A model generated the notes under the pieces. The model had not been told where the DNA came from and searched no databases. It was given only the letters and a program-made list of their open reading frames with translations. Below, in pieces: positions 19,226 to 54,632 of a stretch of 64,000 nt of DNA (positions are counted from its first letter, which is position 1; the number at the start of each line of letters is the position of its first letter). The position numbers and the translations under genes are program-made. Origin of the DNA: Escherichia coli (lineage in GTDB: Bacteria > Pseudomonadota > Gammaproteobacteria > Enterobacterales > Enterobacteriaceae); assembly GCF_044324785.1 (NCBI RefSeq), contig NZ_CP172127.1. One strand, written 5' to 3'.

Positions 19226-20182
19226 TTAGTACTCGATCCATGGATCGCGCTTGCTTTCAGGCAAGGGCTGCTCTAATGCCTGCATTTGCTCTGCCGAAAG
19301 TCCGGTATATCGTTGTATCCATTCAGGATCCGCCCCATTCTGCAACAACAATCGGAGGAGGCTCCGTTCCCCTTCTACTTTCCCTTCTTTCCTCCCCCTC
19401 TCCCTTCCCAACAGCCATCCATCATTATGAATTCGCTCTGCAATCGTCATTATTCGCTCCCTTTGTTGTGGCATTCGACTGGTTAGTTCGCTGATAAACT
19501 CTTTAAAACGCGCTTCATCGCCAGTCAGTAAAATGTAATTTAACAGCGCAGTTATCTGGCTGTCATTAGCACACTCTGTAACCAGTAATATTACCAGTTG
19601 ATCGATAAGCCCCATCAGATCGCGCTGGCGAATATGCTTTTGGATCAACTCCAACAGGGCGACTCTGCGGTGCTGCACAATCTCGTCGTCTGGCACGACA
19701 GTGACATCCACCAGCGGGAACGCTGCAGTATAAAGCTTCCGTGCAGTAGTCGGGTCGGCAAATTCGTCCAGCCAGCACAGGGACCAGGGATAAGGACTAC
19801 GGCTACCGTGATAAAACAGCATCGGGATGACCAGCGGTAGCGGCCGGCGTTTATCATGTTCGATATGGCGCTGCATCACCGCCATGGAATATCGCATCAG
19901 GCGAAAGGCCATATGGATATCCTCGCGGCTCTGATGTTCAATCACTACGTAAATATAACCATCACCTTCACGGGTCTTTACCGACCACAGAATATCGGAG
20001 TGTAGCGCCCGCAATTTTTCATCGACGAAGCTGGCGGATTCCAGTTTTAAGCTGTCGAGATCGCACAATTCACGTAAATCTATTGGTAAGTGGATCTCCA
20101 TAAAATCCCGCGCGGTGTCAGGGTGGGTGAGAAAGGATTTAAATAATGCGTCATGCGGCGTACTGGTCGTGAAGTTTGTCAT
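19226..20182 (-). CDS. rpnD: Rpn-family (YhgA-like) PD-(D/E)xK recombination-promoting nuclease, apparently intact
   Basis: 318-aa uninterrupted [36 protein letters not shown]... typical of the Rpn/YhgA family; position matches the K-12 yjiP/yjiQ locus. Confidence 0.75.
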
Positions 20183-47556: not shown

Positions 47557-48459
47557 TTATTGATAAACAAAAGTCACGCCAATAATCGATTGCACATTCC
47601 CTGCAGTCACCTGCCCTCCGGTACGTGCGTAATTTGCCGTTAATCCCAGACTTACCGCCGAAGTCCCTACTGCTCCTAACGATACCGTGTTATTCGCTGG
47701 AATAATCGTACCGTTGCGCGTCAACTGTACGCCGACGCCCTGTGCTGGTGAAAACGACGCGGTATTGGTGAAAATCGAGTTGCCCGCATCTGCGGTTGTG
47801 CCGGAGAGGTAATACCCCAGGTTTTGGCTTTTCGCACAATAAACGGTAAGAGGAATTGGCACTGAACCAGGGTAGTCCGGCAGAGTAACGGTGACATCAC
47901 GAGCAGAAACATCACAGCCGCCAGTAGGCACCACCACATCATTATTGGCGTAAATATTCCACACAAACTGGAAATCATCGCTGTTATAGTTGTTGGTCTG
48001 TCGCAAAATTAGCACGGCAATTAATGAGCCAGCTTTAATCGCCACCCCGCCCGCACTGCTCACAGGCGTCAAATAAAGCGCCACCGGCCACGGCTTATCC
48101 GTTCTCGAATTATAAACAACGCGCGGCGTTTCGCTGGTGGTAGGAAATGGATAGCTACTGCCACTATATTTTACGGTCCCGGAAAAATTAGATAACACGC
48201 CGCCATAAGCCGAGCCTCGTTGCAGTGTGACATAGTCTGTAATGGTTTCCGGATAATCGTTATGGCAAAAGATTTGCGTCGAAAGATCTACGACCAGGTT
48301 TTGCCCCACATTCACGGCGGGCGCAAGGTTTACATAAACATTGGCGCTGCCACCGCCAATAGGGATAGCGGTACCATTGGCGGTTTTACAGGCGAATGAC
48401 CAGGCATTTACCGACCAGCCCATCAGCAGTACAGCAAACAGGGTAATAACTCGTTTCAT
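47557..48459 (-). CDS. fimH: Type 1 fimbrial tip adhesin FimH (mannose-binding)
   Basis: 300 aa MKRVITLFAVLLMGWSVNAWSFACKTANGTAIPIGGG...; lectin and pilin domains; last gene of the fim operon. Confidence 0.9.
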   Translation of the reverse strand: MKRVITLFAVLLMGWSVNAWSFACKTANGTAIPIGGGSANVYVNLAPAVNVGQNLVVDLSTQIFCHNDYPETITDYVTLQRGSAYGGVLSNFSGTVKYSGSSYPFPTTSETPRVVYNSRTDKPWPVALYLTPVSSAGGVAIKAGSLIAVLILRQTNNYNSDDFQFVWNIYANNDVVVPTGGCDVSARDVTVTLPDYPGSVPIPLTVYCAKSQNLGYYLSGTTADAGNSIFTNTASFSPAQGVGVQLTRNGTIIPANNTVSLGAVGTSAVSLGLTANYARTGGQVTAGNVQSIIGVTFVYQ

Positions 48460-48478
48460 TACAATCATCTCTTCGGGT

Positions 48479-48982
48479 TCAGCTGTAGGTATAGGTGATG
48501 CTAATCACTGCCTGAATGGTTCCCTGAGTGGCTCCGCCATTTACCGTCAATGCTCTGACCTGTAACGGGAAGTGCGCTGATTGTGAGGAATCATCCACCT
48601 GAACTGTTTTGGTTGCGCCAGTATTCAATGTGTTGCCACTGTCATCCTGTAGCTCTAACTGGATGTTTTGCGCGGTCCCCTGGTTTTTATAATATCCGGT
48701 ACTGTCGGCTGCCCCGCTGAAGCTGGCAGTGACCCTCGACGTTCCCACCGGACAATTAGTCAACTCAAGCGCAACATCATGCCAGGCCGATGCCGCCCCG
48801 GCAGACATAAGACTGAAAGAATAAAGATCGCCGAGATCTACCGTGGCATTGGTGGTGGAAACCGTGCACGGTTTGGCGACGACCTTACCGTTCACCGTGA
48901 TGGTGACATCGGCTGCCTGTATCGTCGCACTTGCGAGCGCCAACATTGCCGCCAATAAATACCCACGTTTGCACCATTTCAT
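48479..48982 (-). CDS. fimG: Type 1 fimbrial minor subunit FimG
   Basis: 167 aa MKWCKRGYLLAAMLALASATIQA... Confidence 0.9.
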   Translation of the reverse strand: MKWCKRGYLLAAMLALASATIQAADVTITVNGKVVAKPCTVSTTNATVDLGDLYSFSLMSAGAASAWHDVALELTNCPVGTSRVTASFSGAADSTGYYKNQGTAQNIQLELQDDSGNTLNTGATKTVQVDDSSQSAHFPLQVRALTVNGGATQGTIQAVISITYTYS

Positions 48983-48994
48983 GAGCATCTCCAG

Positions 48995-49525
48995 TTACTG
49001 ATATTCAAGAGTGAAGGTAGCCGTGGCATTGATATGCCCCGCAGTGACAGGCACCTGTGTCGCCATTAGCCGGGCGTAAAAATTCAGCGTATTTGGTTTA
49101 CCCGGCGTCAGGGTCGTCCACGAAATCGCGGACGATGGAGCATTAAGGGGTATTTGATTTTGCTGCTCATTCAGAAGCTGTATTCCCAGTCCCGCAGCCG
49201 CTGACACCGTATTTTCAAGTGCAAGCAGGTTGGCATTGTGGCTATCTGCAACGCCAGTAAACCCAACCTTTACGGCAGAAACGGCGTTACCACAGGGTGA
49301 CAGCAAAATACGAAATGGAACGACAGGAGTCGTCGCGCCAATGTTGTTAAATTGCTTCGCCGCGTTTTCCATCAGATCAACAGTAAAATTGGTTGATTCA
49401 GCGGCCACACTACAGCCGTTATCTCTGACATAGCCGCGGATAGTAATCGTGCTATCCGCAGCCAAAGCGCGACTCACCGCCAGCCACAAAAAAGCGCACA
49501 GAAGATAAAAAGGTTTGTTTCTCAT
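48995..49525 (-). CDS. fimF: Type 1 fimbrial minor subunit FimF
   Basis: 176 aa [18 protein letters not shown]... Confidence 0.9.
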
Positions 49526-49534
49526 CACGCCCCC

Positions 49535-52171
49535 TTAACGACATTCAGCTGATAGCTGGGTTAATAACTGCTGCTGACTCTCTGGTGGCAGTTGATAATT
49601 GGCGACACAGTGAGCATTTTCCTCTTCTCCCCATTTCACCTGAACTTTTCCCGCTAAAGGCATTCCGCTGAGGTAAACCTGACCATTATCCGCAACAATG
49701 CCGCTACTCTGGCTACTCTCTGATGTCACCATCGCCCCAAACGGCAGCGGCTTATTATTGTGGGTTAGCGTCATGAGCAGTTTTATCCCAACGCGCGCTT
49801 TAAACTCTGCTCGCACTATCGCCCCACGAGTGGGAACAACGTTAGCGACCGCGTTATCTAAATCGACGTTATCAGCCAGGGTATTGGTATCCAGCGCCAC
49901 TCTGTTTTCCCGATATTCAGTGGCATAAGGCAGCACGGCATAACCGCGCCAGTCGGTACGCACCCCCGTCTGGTTTTCGACTTTTGCATCTTTTGCGCCA
50001 GGCGCTTTAACAAGCACCACCGTATCGTTTAACGGCTGCCCCAGCGTTACGCCATTGGCATGAGCCAGTACCCCACCGCTGACTCCGTAATAGAGCTGCT
50101 TAATATCATCACTATGGCTGTAACCGATATTGGCATTGCCGTAACCACCGCGATAATTCAGCGTGGCGTAGCCTGTGCTTCCGCTATTACCATCGCCTCC
50201 CCCGGCATAACCGGTTTGCACGCTATAGCTGAGGTTGTTGTCTTCCAGCAACGTACCGTATACGCCAGCCAGATTGGTCATCCGACCGTTGAGATCGTGT
50301 GACATGCTGTAGCTGGCACTGGCATGTCGCCACTGAGATTTACTGTCAGAACGCAGCCAGTGGCTGAAAGGAATATTGACGTTAAGCGCTAACATCTGAT
50401 CCCGTCCTTTTTGCCAGGCGTTTTTCGTCAGGCTATAGCTGAGCGTCCAGTTGATATCTTCGAACGCAGTATTTAATCCAGCCTGGAATTGCTCATCGAC
50501 ATTACTCGTTCCCCAATAAGTTTGATGGCTACCACTCAAATACAGTGTTGATGAGCGCCCGAGTTGCTGAGTAACGGTGAGCTGTAATTTCCCGCGTTTG
50601 TTATAAGCGAGATTGTAATAGTCGGTGAATTTCGGCTTAACCTGAATAACTCCGTCCTGTGTTTCGATGTTGTAGCCATTCATTCGACTGTATGTTGTAT
50701 CAGCGAAATTAAAATATCCGCTGGTCGAATAACGGTAACCCACTAACTGAATATTCGTGCCTGATTCATTGAGCGATTTGTTATAGAGAAAACGCACCGA
50801 TTGTCCGTCATGCTGACTGTCATCGGGAAGTGTGGAATTAGCCTGCGTCATATCCACAGACAGAGCGCCCAGTGCCCCCATGTTTTTCCCGATGCCGAAA
50901 TTAAAAGCACGATAACGATCCGCCAGTTGCGTTCCACCATATATTGTCCAGCCAGCCGGAAGGCCGTGGAGTAATGTACTCTGGAAAAAGCGGGGTTTTT
51001 CCTGTTGCGCATTTCCACTACGGTATTCTCCTGCCGTAATGGAATAACGAGTATGCCCTTCACGTTGCAAAAGCGGGACTGACGAATAGGGTACGGTAAA
51101 AATCTGCGTGCTGCCGTCAGCCTCTTTGATCGTTACCTGCAAGTCACCACTATTACCTGCGGCATAGATATCGTGGATGGTAAAAGGCCCCGGTGGCACC
51201 GTACTATTATAAATGTCATACCCATTTTGTTTAATAGTGACCTGTGCAGTACCACGAGCAATACCGTGGATCACCGGGGCAAATCCTCTTTGGCTATCGG
51301 GTAACATATTGTCATCTGAGGCCAATTGTGCGCCGCGAAAGTTAATACCATCGAAAATATCGCCCTGAGTATAACCATCACCCAGCGTCAGCCGGGAACG
51401 TAACGGAATTATGTCTCGCTCAAGCCAGGTATTGATATGCTGCCATTTATTTTTGCTACCTGATGAACTGTCGCTACTGTTATAACTCCAGGTGGTATTG
51501 TCGCGTAAACGCCACGCACCAATATTTAGCCCACTCTGTAGGTTTAAATATGCATAATGGCTGTTACTACCAATCCGATTCTGTACACTATTTCCGCTGA
51601 AATTATAATTGAGCAAGCCGGCATTAATACCGGGATCCCACAACTCAGGAGGAATATATCCACGCGCGCGATTACTCATAAATGCCTGAGGGATCGTCAG
51701 GTTGAGTCGCTGCTGACCAACATCTAAATGCGCAGTAGCGTCATGGATCATTGAGGTTAATGGCACGCAGGCATCATCCGCCAGCAGATTCATACCGGAG
51801 ACAGAAGCCGTATTCAGCCCCATACTGGCAAGTTGCGCGCGTGTCAGGCAGGGAACAATCCCTTGTTCACTGTCGCCCGTGTTAAATGTGACATCACGCG
51901 TTGCCATATAACCATTATTCAAATAGATATCGACACGATACGTCCCTGGCGGTAATTCTTGCCCATTTTCAAAACGCGATAAATCGGCCACAGCCTGGGG
52001 ATCATCCGCTAAAAAACGCGGGTTAAAATAGAGTTCGGCAGATGACAAAGGTGCCTGTGCGGCAAAAGCACAGGCGACAACGAGCCGGACAAAAAAACCA
52101 GCCAAACGATGCTTACGAATATGCAAGCATTGTGTGTTTCGCTGGTAAAGTCTTAAATTCAGATATGACAT
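49535..52171 (-). CDS. fimD: Type 1 fimbrial outer-membrane usher FimD
   Basis: 878-aa usher MSYLNLRLYQRNTQCLHIRKHRLAGFFVRLVVACAFAAQA... Confidence 0.9.
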   Translation of the reverse strand: MSYLNLRLYQRNTQCLHIRKHRLAGFFVRLVVACAFAAQAPLSSAELYFNPRFLADDPQAVADLSRFENGQELPPGTYRVDIYLNNGYMATRDVTFNTGDSEQGIVPCLTRAQLASMGLNTASVSGMNLLADDACVPLTSMIHDATAHLDVGQQRLNLTIPQAFMSNRARGYIPPELWDPGINAGLLNYNFSGNSVQNRIGSNSHYAYLNLQSGLNIGAWRLRDNTTWSYNSSDSSSGSKNKWQHINTWLERDIIPLRSRLTLGDGYTQGDIFDGINFRGAQLASDDNMLPDSQRGFAPVIHGIARGTAQVTIKQNGYDIYNSTVPPGPFTIHDIYAAGNSGDLQVTIKEADGSTQIFTVPYSSVPLLQREGHTRYSITAGEYRSGNAQQEKPRFFQSTLLHGLPAGWTIYGGTQLADRYRAFNFGIGKNMGALGALSVDMTQANSTLPDDSQHDGQSVRFLYNKSLNESGTNIQLVGYRYSTSGYFNFADTTYSRMNGYNIETQDGVIQVKPKFTDYYNLAYNKRGKLQLTVTQQLGRSSTLYLSGSHQTYWGTSNVDEQFQAGLNTAFEDINWTLSYSLTKNAWQKGRDQMLALNVNIPFSHWLRSDSKSQWRHASASYSMSHDLNGRMTNLAGVYGTLLEDNNLSYSVQTGYAGGGDGNSGSTGYATLNYRGGYGNANIGYSHSDDIKQLYYGVSGGVLAHANGVTLGQPLNDTVVLVKAPGAKDAKVENQTGVRTDWRGYAVLPYATEYRENRVALDTNTLADNVDLDNAVANVVPTRGAIVRAEFKARVGIKLLMTLTHNNKPLPFGAMVTSESSQSSGIVADNGQVYLSGMPLAGKVQVKWGEEENAHCVANYQLPPESQQQLLTQLSAECR

Positions 52172-52237
52172 TATTCCTCCGGTTTAAAATCACCCGGCAG
52201 TCAATTCTTTTTATTCAGGCGAAAAATTCCCCCTGCG

Positions 52238-52963
52238 TTATTCCATTACGCCCGTCATTTTGGGGGTAAGTGCGCCATAATCATTTATTGTTCGGTAAGT
52301 AATATTGCTTCCTGCATCAGAAGGCAATTTAACCGTGCTTTCGCCCATTGGAGGCACCAATGCATTTTCAAGAACCCGGGTTCCGGCATTCAACTCTGTT
52401 ACCGTCAGGTAATAGGGTGTCGGGTTAATCAGCGTCAGAGAATTCGCGCTACGACGAAATCTTAATTTTTCTGCGGCCTGATCGGGTGGCAACGCTAATT
52501 TAGCCGGGCGATAGTACAGTTTAATGCGGCTGATAATTGCGAGCTGTAGCGTATTCTCAGTCAATTTTGATTTATCCATTGACGGAATCGCTTTAACGTT
52601 CATCCAGAATAAACTTTCCCGATCCTGTGGCAATTGGTTATTTGTTGCATCAAGAATACGTAAGGTATTCTCTTTTTTTCCCTTCATCGCAAACAGAGGT
52701 GGCGTCACGATAAAACGACCATCCTTTACACCATCGGCATTTTCCACCCATGATTGAATTAAATAGGTGCTATTTTCATCATTATTTGTCACGGCAAGTT
52801 GCACTTGTTTTTGCCCTGCCGGATAAATTACGCGGGTCGCACCTAAGGCCACTCCCGCTTCAGCGCGTCCGGCAACCATCATTGCCATGAACATCAGGAT
52901 ACCTGCCAGCAAGCAGAATGTTATTTCCTGCGATTTCCTTACATTGACGTTTTTATTACTCAC
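52238..52963 (-). CDS. fimC: Type 1 fimbrial periplasmic chaperone FimC
   Basis: 241 aa PapD-like chaperone. Confidence 0.9.
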   Translation of the reverse strand: MSNKNVNVRKSQEITFCLLAGILMFMAMMVAGRAEAGVALGATRVIYPAGQKQVQLAVTNNDENSTYLIQSWVENADGVKDGRFIVTPPLFAMKGKKENTLRILDATNNQLPQDRESLFWMNVKAIPSMDKSKLTENTLQLAIISRIKLYYRPAKLALPPDQAAEKLRFRRSANSLTLINPTPYYLTVTELNAGTRVLENALVPPMGESTVKLPSDAGSNITYRTINDYGALTPKMTGVME

Positions 52964-52999
52964 TGTCCTGTTCCTGTTATCACATTATCTGCTGAACAA

Positions 53000-53539
53000 T
53001 TACTGATAGGTTAAAGAGAACCAAGCCTGGGCATTGGCGATGCCGCCAGTAACCCGACGCCCGGTAGCACGATATTTGGCGATGAAATGTAGCGAAGTAG
53101 AGCCTGAGTAAAGCCGTTTCCAGTTTGCTGGAGTACGATTAATCGGTACGAGGTTTCCTTCATCATCAAATAACGCTACGCCAATGTTTGTGGCTATCCC
53201 TGGCCCCTCTCCCACGGAAAGCACATCCGGATTTTTACCATCCGCGACACCGTGAAACGCCACACCCACACGTTCACTCACCACCGTGCTACATTCCCGT
53301 AAATGAATAACAAAAGGCACCGGTGCGCTATCTTCCCCTACCGCATGAAACCGGTTACTGCTGATTTGCCCCATATTGACCGTCATTTGTTTATCACCAG
53401 CTTCAACTCGGCAAGTTTCCGCAATAATGACGCCCTGAAATTGCATATTTCCGCCGGGCAGCGTGGTATTCCATTTATTTCCGGCCAGAGCAAACATTGG
53501 CAGCAACGACGCTAATAGAAATAATCTCTTCCTTTTCAT
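53000..53539 (-). CDS. fimI: Type 1 fimbrial protein FimI
   Basis: 179 aa from ATG 53539 ([20 protein letters not shown]...); the longer ORF-track start is discounted. Confidence 0.85.
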
Positions 53540-53603
53540 CGTTATTTTTATCGCACAAGGGTGGGCATCCCTGCCCGTAATGACGTCCCTGAACCTGGGT
53601 AGG

Positions 53604-54152
53604 TTATTGATACTGAACCTTGAAGGTCGCATCCGCATTAGCAGCACCTGGGGTTGCGGCACCGGTTGCAAAATAACGCGCCTGGAACGGAATGGTGTTG
53701 GTTCCGTTATTCAGGGTTGTTTCTGAACTAAATGTCGCACCGTCCAGCGCCAGCGCAGCACCCGTTCTGTCCAGGATCTGCACACCAACGTTTGTTGCGC
53801 TACCAGCAGCTGAACTCTGCAGAGCCAGAACGTTGGTATGAGCCGCATCAATCGCCGTACCTAAAAAGGCAACAGCGGCTTTAGATGCAACATTGGTATC
53901 GCAATCATTCAGCTGAATGTTAAAACCGACAGCAGAACTGGTCGCTCCTTCCTGTGCCAGCGATGCGGTACGAACCTGTCCTAACTGAACGGTTTGATCA
54001 ACAGAGCCTGCATCAACCGCGCAAGCGGCGTTAACAACTTCCCCTTTAAAGTGAACGGTCCCACCATTAACCGTCGTGGCAGCGGCCAGAGCCGCTGTAG
54101 AACTGAGGGACAGAGCCGACAGAACAACGATTGCCAGAGTTTTAATTTTCAT
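53604..54152 (-). CDS. fimA: Type 1 fimbrial major subunit FimA
   Basis: 182 aa from ATG 54152 ([31 protein letters not shown]...). Confidence 0.9.
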
Positions 54153-54271
54153 GCTGCTTTCCTTTAAAAAAACTATTTCTAAATCGACATGGGCAGTCGT
54201 TCTGTACACTTTGTTTTGTCAACGAGTTTGACTGCCAACACTGCACAGTTTTCCCCCAAAAGATGAAACAT

Positions 54272-54585
54272 TTGGGGCCATTTTGACTCATAGAGGAAAG
54301 CATCGCGCACAAACTTTTTCAGTTTATTTGTTGGCTTAATATTCTATTGTTATCTTTATTTATAGATTTTTATATTGCATGAGGTGGTTTTTGGAGAGAA
54401 GAATGAGGAAGATGCGTCGAGCCACAGAAACGTTAGCTTTACATTTGGCGGAGGTGATGTGAAATTAATTTACAAGAGAAATAATTTACATATCAAACAG
54501 TTAGATGCTTTTTATCGTTTTTTAATATTTTTATGCTTGAGAAAAAATACGTAACTTATTTATGATATGGACAGTTTGGCCCCAA
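54272..54585. promoter_or_regulatory. fimS: fimS invertible switch (314 bp) carrying the fimA promoter; appears to be in the phase-OFF orientation in this sequence
   Basis: 9-bp inverted repeats TTGGGGCCA (54272-54280) and TGGCCCCAA (54577-54585), exactly 314 bp apart, between fimA and fimE. Best sigma-70-like element inside (TTGAGA 54537-54542, N18, TATGAT 54561-54566) is on the plus strand pointing toward fimE, away from fimA; single HinfI site GACTC at 54285 sits at the fimA-proximal end. Confidence 0.8.
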
Positions 54586-54632
54586 TTGTCTTGTATTTAT
54601 TTGTTTTTTAACTTTATTATCAATAAGTTAAA

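Follow-up and report, generated by a model that had tools for sequence, protein, structure and literature searches.

The segment at positions 54272 to 54585 of the window (the whole 64,000-nucleotide stretch of Escherichia coli DNA that was analysed) is almost certainly fimS, the canonical phase switch of E. coli type 1 fimbriae, and it stands here in the OFF orientation. Since 1985 the fim switch has served as a textbook case of phase variation through site-specific inversion, and what we describe here belongs to established biology, in the state that is recorded most often. The literature defines fimS as a 314-bp segment with 9-bp inverted repeats, TTGGGGCCA (PMC9820224). The corresponding features of the window are listed below.

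54272 to 54585, unstranded: fimS invertible element, 314 bp, phase OFF orientation (from the repeat boundaries, a 308/314 match to MG1655, three in silico assays, and collinearity with UTI89 and MG1655)
54272 to 54280, unstranded: fimA-proximal 9-bp inverted repeat IRR, TTGGGGCCA (repeat sequence as in PMC9820224)
54577 to 54585, unstranded: fimE-proximal 9-bp inverted repeat IRL, TGGCCCCAA on the plus strand (the reverse complement of TTGGGGCCA)

Each of the two 9-bp repeats occurs only once within the 64-kb window, and their outer span is exactly 314 bp; both this length and the repeat sequence are those of E. coli fimS. A repeat search places the 9-bp repeats at the center of a longer, imperfect inverted repeat of 22 nt. 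However, a pair of 9-bp repeats by itself proves little, because the same 701 bp around fimS contain 13 inverted pairs of at least 8 nt. The GC content of the segment is 32%. We identify the segment as fimS because of its homology to characterized switches (308 of 314 bases identical to MG1655 and 302 of 314 to UTI89) and because of its position between fimE and fimA. The preliminary description of this DNA had reported an intact 314-bp element with both of its 9-bp repeats, and the unique repeats, the exact span, and the match to MG1655 bear this out.

The genes on either side of the switch are as follows.

53604 to 54152, minus strand: fimA, major subunit, 182 aa, intact (90% identity to UTI89 FimA, full length; the ATG is 119 bp from IRR)
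54633 to 55229, minus strand: fimE, tyrosine recombinase for ON-to-OFF switching, 198 aa, intact (R41/H136/R139/Y171; the stop codon is 47 bp from IRL)
55706 to 56308, minus strand: fimB, bidirectional tyrosine recombinase, 200 aa, intact (R47/H141/R144/Y176)
47557 to 53539, minus strand: fimI, fimC, fimD, fimF, fimG, and fimH, the remainder of the switch-controlled operon, full length (tblastn against UTI89 proteins, 97.8 to 100%)

The window thus contains a complete type 1 fimbrial locus, with nine fim genes in canonical order on the minus strand, all nine products full length relative to the UTI89 proteins, and fimS in the gap that separates fimE from fimA, upstream of fimAICDFGH. The tblastn matches of FimI through FimH to the UTI89 proteins have full coverage and no gaps. 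FimB and FimE are each 99.5% identical to their UTI89 counterparts, and when their sequences are read, both have the R-H-R-Y tetrad, the residues of which are listed in PMC9820224.

FimA is the divergent member of this set: it has 90% identity and 2 gaps relative to UTI89 FimA, and no other Fim protein falls below 97.8%. Such divergence is in keeping with the known diversifying selection and antigenic variation of the major subunit. The 35-nt small RNA FimR2 (MG1655 annotation b4838), which lies just 3′ of fimA at 53559 to 53593 on the minus strand, is conserved at 35 of 35 bases. An Rfam scan of positions 52500 to 57800 at an E value of ≤1 matched no family.

The orientation of the element is supported as phase OFF in the sense in which the literature defines it. 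Three PCR/restriction phase assays from the literature were run in silico: we placed the published primer sequences on the window and digested the amplicons with the element both as recorded and inverted. The primer sequences themselves had to be placed because the arithmetic of fragment sizes is symmetric, and other hypothetical primer positions would flip the reading; for the same reason, fragment sizes alone were rejected as a determinant of phase. The restriction sites and the assay results are as follows.

54285 to 54289, unstranded: HinfI site GACTC, used in the 559-bp assay (the only one within 54000 to 54800; 13 bp from the outer edge of the fimA-proximal repeat)
54304 to 54307, unstranded: BstUI site CGCG inside fimS, used in the OL4/OL20 assay (site search and in silico digest)
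54548 to 54553, unstranded: SnaBI site TACGTA, used in the 601-bp assay (site search and in silico digest)
HinfI assay, primers Phase_L and Phase_R (PMC4349694): amplicon 54088 to 54646, 559 bp, one site at 54285; 198 + 361 bp as recorded and 481 + 78 bp when flipped; published sizes are 200/359 (PMC4349694) and 202/357 (PMC9910484) for OFF, and a 489-bp band, ~489 + 70 (PMC4349694), and 74/485 (PMC9910484) for ON
SnaBI assay (PMC11724981): amplicon 54111 to 54711, 601 bp; 440 + 161 bp as recorded and 196 + 405 bp when flipped; published sizes are 440/161 for OFF and 403/198 for ON (PMC11724981)
BstUI assay, primers OL4 and OL20 (PMC9993118): amplicon 54118 to 54844, 727 bp; 188 + 539 bp as recorded and 434 + 293 bp when flipped; published sizes are 187/539 for OFF and 433/293 for ON (PMC9993118)

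All three assays give the OFF pattern with the element as recorded, and they give the ON pattern only after in silico inversion. Differences of 1 to 8 bp between the computed and published fragment sizes vary with the strain and with the way of counting the cut. The BstUI site has been placed between LRP-2 and IRR (PMC9993118). The preliminary description had located a single HinfI site at 54285, 13 bp in from the fimA-proximal repeat, and had referred to a standard 559-bp assay in which this site yields 359 + 200 bp in the OFF phase. The site search of 54000 to 54800 agrees with the first statement, and the 559-bp amplicon obtained with the published primers, cut to 198 + 361 bp, agrees with the second. 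That description had also proposed a HinfI or SnaBI phase assay as a check, and in silico both enzymes return OFF. Another primer pair, COL69/COL-DFP, spans 423 bp in the window versus the 385 bp quoted in PMC9993118; this pair carries no phase information because it brackets the whole switch.

Comparison with reference switches leads to the same conclusion. The preliminary description had suggested comparing the element with a switch of known phase, and UPEC strain UTI89 (NC_007946.1) provides one: its reference is stated to be OFF, and overexpression of fimB or fimX inverts fimS relative to that reference (bioRxiv 10.1101/494401). The alignment of the window with UTI89 is collinear across the switch, and therefore both are in the same phase. 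The two elements differ by twelve substitutions. The fimS of K-12 strain MG1655 (NC_000913.3, positions 4542682 to 4542995) resembles the window element in its 314-bp length, its 9-bp repeats, its position between fimE and fimA, its HinfI, BstUI, and SnaBI sites, and its orientation in the reference record, and a single collinear BLAST alignment runs across the switch. It differs from the window by six substitutions, and the surrounding 5 kb are 97.8% identical.

A protein-binding site within the element can also be compared with published work, as follows.

54314 to 54350, minus strand: Fis-binding site with nested LRP-2 site, wild-type CAATAGAATATTAAGCCAACAAATAAACTGAAAAAG conserved (located by the flanks of the mutagenic oligonucleotides FBSFOR2 and FBSREV2, PMC9993118)

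The unmutated flanking segments of FBSFOR2 and FBSREV2 match the window, with the 5′ 13 nt of FBSREV2 at 54314 to 54326. The Dorman laboratory describes the Fis/LRP-2 site as lying at the right (fimA-proximal) end of phase OFF fimS (PMC9993118), and in the window the site does adjoin the fimA-proximal repeat. When the primers for the 135-bp Fis/Lrp probe (PMC9993118) are placed on the recorded sequence of the window, they face each other over exactly 135 bp. The Fis/LRP-2 site is the one accessory-protein site that we matched to a published sequence.

The orientation of the candidate promoter inside fimS is also that of an OFF switch. The relevant features are listed below.

54537 to 54566, plus strand: sigma-70-like promoter TTGAGA-N18-TATGAT, taken as PfimA (10/12 consensus match, the best of 3 sites)
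54573, plus strand: predicted PfimA transcription start, an A, 7 nt after the −10 hexamer (from sequence context)

The site at 54537 to 54566 points toward fimE and away from fimA, and 10 bp separate the end of its −10 hexamer from IRL. We take it to be the fimA promoter PfimA, reportedly mapped by Olsen and Klemm in 1994 with its start just inside the repeat. This assignment is probable, and the consensus scoring behind it is at chance level: a promoter scan of fimS gave 3 hits, compared with 2.2 ± 1.4 expected by chance, which is not significant on its own in AT-rich DNA. According to PMC9096935, the fimA transcription start is an A inside fimS. A full-text literature search that combined the promoter hexamers with fimA gave no relevant paper. 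The preliminary description had called the 54537 to 54566 site the "only convincing" promoter and had it directed toward fimE. The site is present, it is the best match, and it faces fimE, but "only" slightly overstates the case, since there are two other 9/12 matches. These weaker sigma-70-like matches inside fimS, one on the plus strand at 54347 to 54376 and one on the minus strand at 54496 to 54467, are at chance level, and the minus-strand site faces fimA only in the OFF orientation. The OFF call does not depend on the identity of the promoter; it stands on the assays and the reference switches.

In order to see how common this orientation is, we surveyed 5,426 complete E. coli genomes, of which 4,721 carry the region, and counted orientation at ≥80% coverage. 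The orientation of fimS is the same as that of the window in 4,458 genomes and is opposite, being matched by the flipped query, in 248; by subtraction, 15 genomes have neither. The OFF orientation therefore accounts for ~94.7% (about 95%) of classifiable assemblies. An OFF record is the expected, ordinary outcome, and it fits the established OFF bias that FimE imposes in ordinary culture.

An assembly is a consensus of a population and cannot give the ON:OFF ratio, and for this reason "non-piliated" would apply to most of the sequenced culture and is not a fixed trait of the strain or a measure of its capacity. The preliminary description had read the assembly as representing a non-piliated state. 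The OFF orientation on which that reading was based is supported by the three assays and by the references, but the statement applies only to the majority of a mixed culture. Taken further, the same consideration raises the possibility that the recorded orientation is simply a choice made during assembly of reads from a mixed or mostly ON culture, and that it is uninformative about the cells. It is true that assemblers output one path and that fimS is heterogeneous in cultures, so that reads of both orientations are expected (bioRxiv 10.1101/494401). However, assemblers normally take the majority path, and the 94:5 split over 4,721 genomes agrees with the OFF bias known from cultures grown under standard conditions. 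We consider this explanation quite unlikely, and the record probably reflects a culture that was mostly OFF.

We also considered whether the switch is locked OFF, which would mean that the element is degenerate or disabled and that OFF is a fixed genotype rather than a phase. Locked-OFF lineages do exist: a locked-OFF O157 derivative has been used as a control (PMC9910484), locking in EHEC and inactivation of fimB in ST131 have been mentioned (bioRxiv 10.1101/494401), and the window fimS does differ from that of MG1655 at 6 positions. Against this, both fimB and fimE are full length, with their catalytic tetrads intact. The element itself has the full 314 bp and perfect repeats and is not a shortened switch of the O157 type; O157:H7 carries a 16-bp fimS deletion. 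A further argument comes from E. coli VCSW7 (NZ_CP082357.1), in which the same fimS allele and its 200-bp flanks occur in the opposite (ON) orientation: our in silico-inverted query matches VCSW7 with 100% identity over all 714 bp. Since the identical allele is present in inverted form in VCSW7, this allele does invert, and the split of 4,458 to 248 genomes shows both orientations across the species. From these comparisons, the switch does not look locked, and a cis-locked state appears very unlikely. The comparisons cover the locus itself; the trans-acting factors IHF and Lrp are encoded elsewhere in the genome.

The least probable alternative, that the element is actually ON and that the phase convention has been read backwards, is extremely unlikely, for although the symmetry of the fragment arithmetic means that other primer positions would make the same sites read ON, the published primers placed on the window give OFF in all three assays, the window is collinear with a UTI89 reference described as OFF, and the promoter-like site is not directed toward fimA but away from it.

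With the element read as an intact, invertible fimS in the OFF phase, the mechanism would be that worked out in the literature for this switch. FimB and FimE would bind half-sites flanking each repeat, exchange strands within the 9-bp repeats, and invert the 314-bp segment (PMC9820224, PMC9993118). According to the literature, FimB would act in both directions and FimE would drive switching strongly from ON to OFF. Because of this strong drive by FimE, cultures in broth or on plates, and hence the assemblies made from them, would be mostly OFF. IHF, Lrp, and Fis, the accessory roles of which we likewise take from the literature, would shape the DNA. In the ON phase, the promoter would adjoin the fimA-proximal repeat, read through IRR and the 119-bp leader into fimA, and transcribe fimAICDFGH. 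In the OFF phase, as recorded here, it would adjoin the fimE-proximal repeat and fire toward the 3′ end of fimE, leaving the operon with no promoter and the cells bald. Inversion would also connect or disconnect fimE and a Rho-dependent terminator inside fimS and in this way affect the production of FimE (PMC9993118). A further, improbable idea is that in the OFF phase the 54537 to 54566 promoter might produce antisense RNA that crosses IRL, reaches the 3′ end of fimE at a distance of 47 bp, and feeds back on FimE levels, or that the weak minus-strand site at 54496 to 54467 might give basal fim transcription; the support for this consists of consensus matches that occur at chance frequency.

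For annotators and for programs that predict expression, the consequence of the OFF orientation is that fimAICDFGH, although an intact operon, appears in this record with no promoter. Because every part needed for the ON phase is present, it would be wrong to score the strain as fimbria negative. Beyond correct annotation, the significance of the finding is small.

The same logic of an invertible promoter and a tyrosine recombinase is found in hyxS/FimX of UPEC, in Klebsiella fimS, and in the Proteus mrp switch. In the ipuS switch of UPEC, with IpuA and IpuB, the promoter likewise sits on an invertible segment with short inverted repeats, and a recombinase is encoded next to it (bioRxiv 10.1101/494401). 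All four differ from the window element in their loci, in their repeat sequences, and in the genes that they control, while the window element is fimS itself.

The neighborhood of the locus shows several additional features. VCSW7 is a soil isolate, and positions 20001 to 20714 of the VCSW7 stretch that we compared match window positions 54072 to 54785 in inverted orientation. Outside the 314-bp element and the 200 bp on each side, which are 100% identical after inversion, the rest of the locus is ~98.4% identical, and the neighboring 26 kb of VCSW7 are 98.1 to 98.6% identical to the window. This level is too low for the window to come from VCSW7 itself, and the complete genome closest to the window is that of strain N3, at 99.4%. 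The perfect match at fimS amid this lower identity could be due either to recombination at this spot or to strong conservation of the switch region.

Positions 1 to 25000 of the window contain a type I restriction-modification (hsd) region, with DUF262 and restriction genes, beside btsT and tsr. This segment is present at ≥80% coverage in 113 of the 5,426 complete genomes, and its sole close match is strain N3 (NZ_CP031609.1), at 99.4%. At the other end of the window, downstream of nanS, positions 60764 to 61336 and 62321 to 64000 depart from VCSW7, in which the nanS and HNH genes are truncated. The window, like strain Br_167_kylling, has a full nanS, an HNH endonuclease, a phosphorothioate-sensing restriction endonuclease, and McrBC. 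The region downstream of nanS is a variable neighborhood of defense genes.
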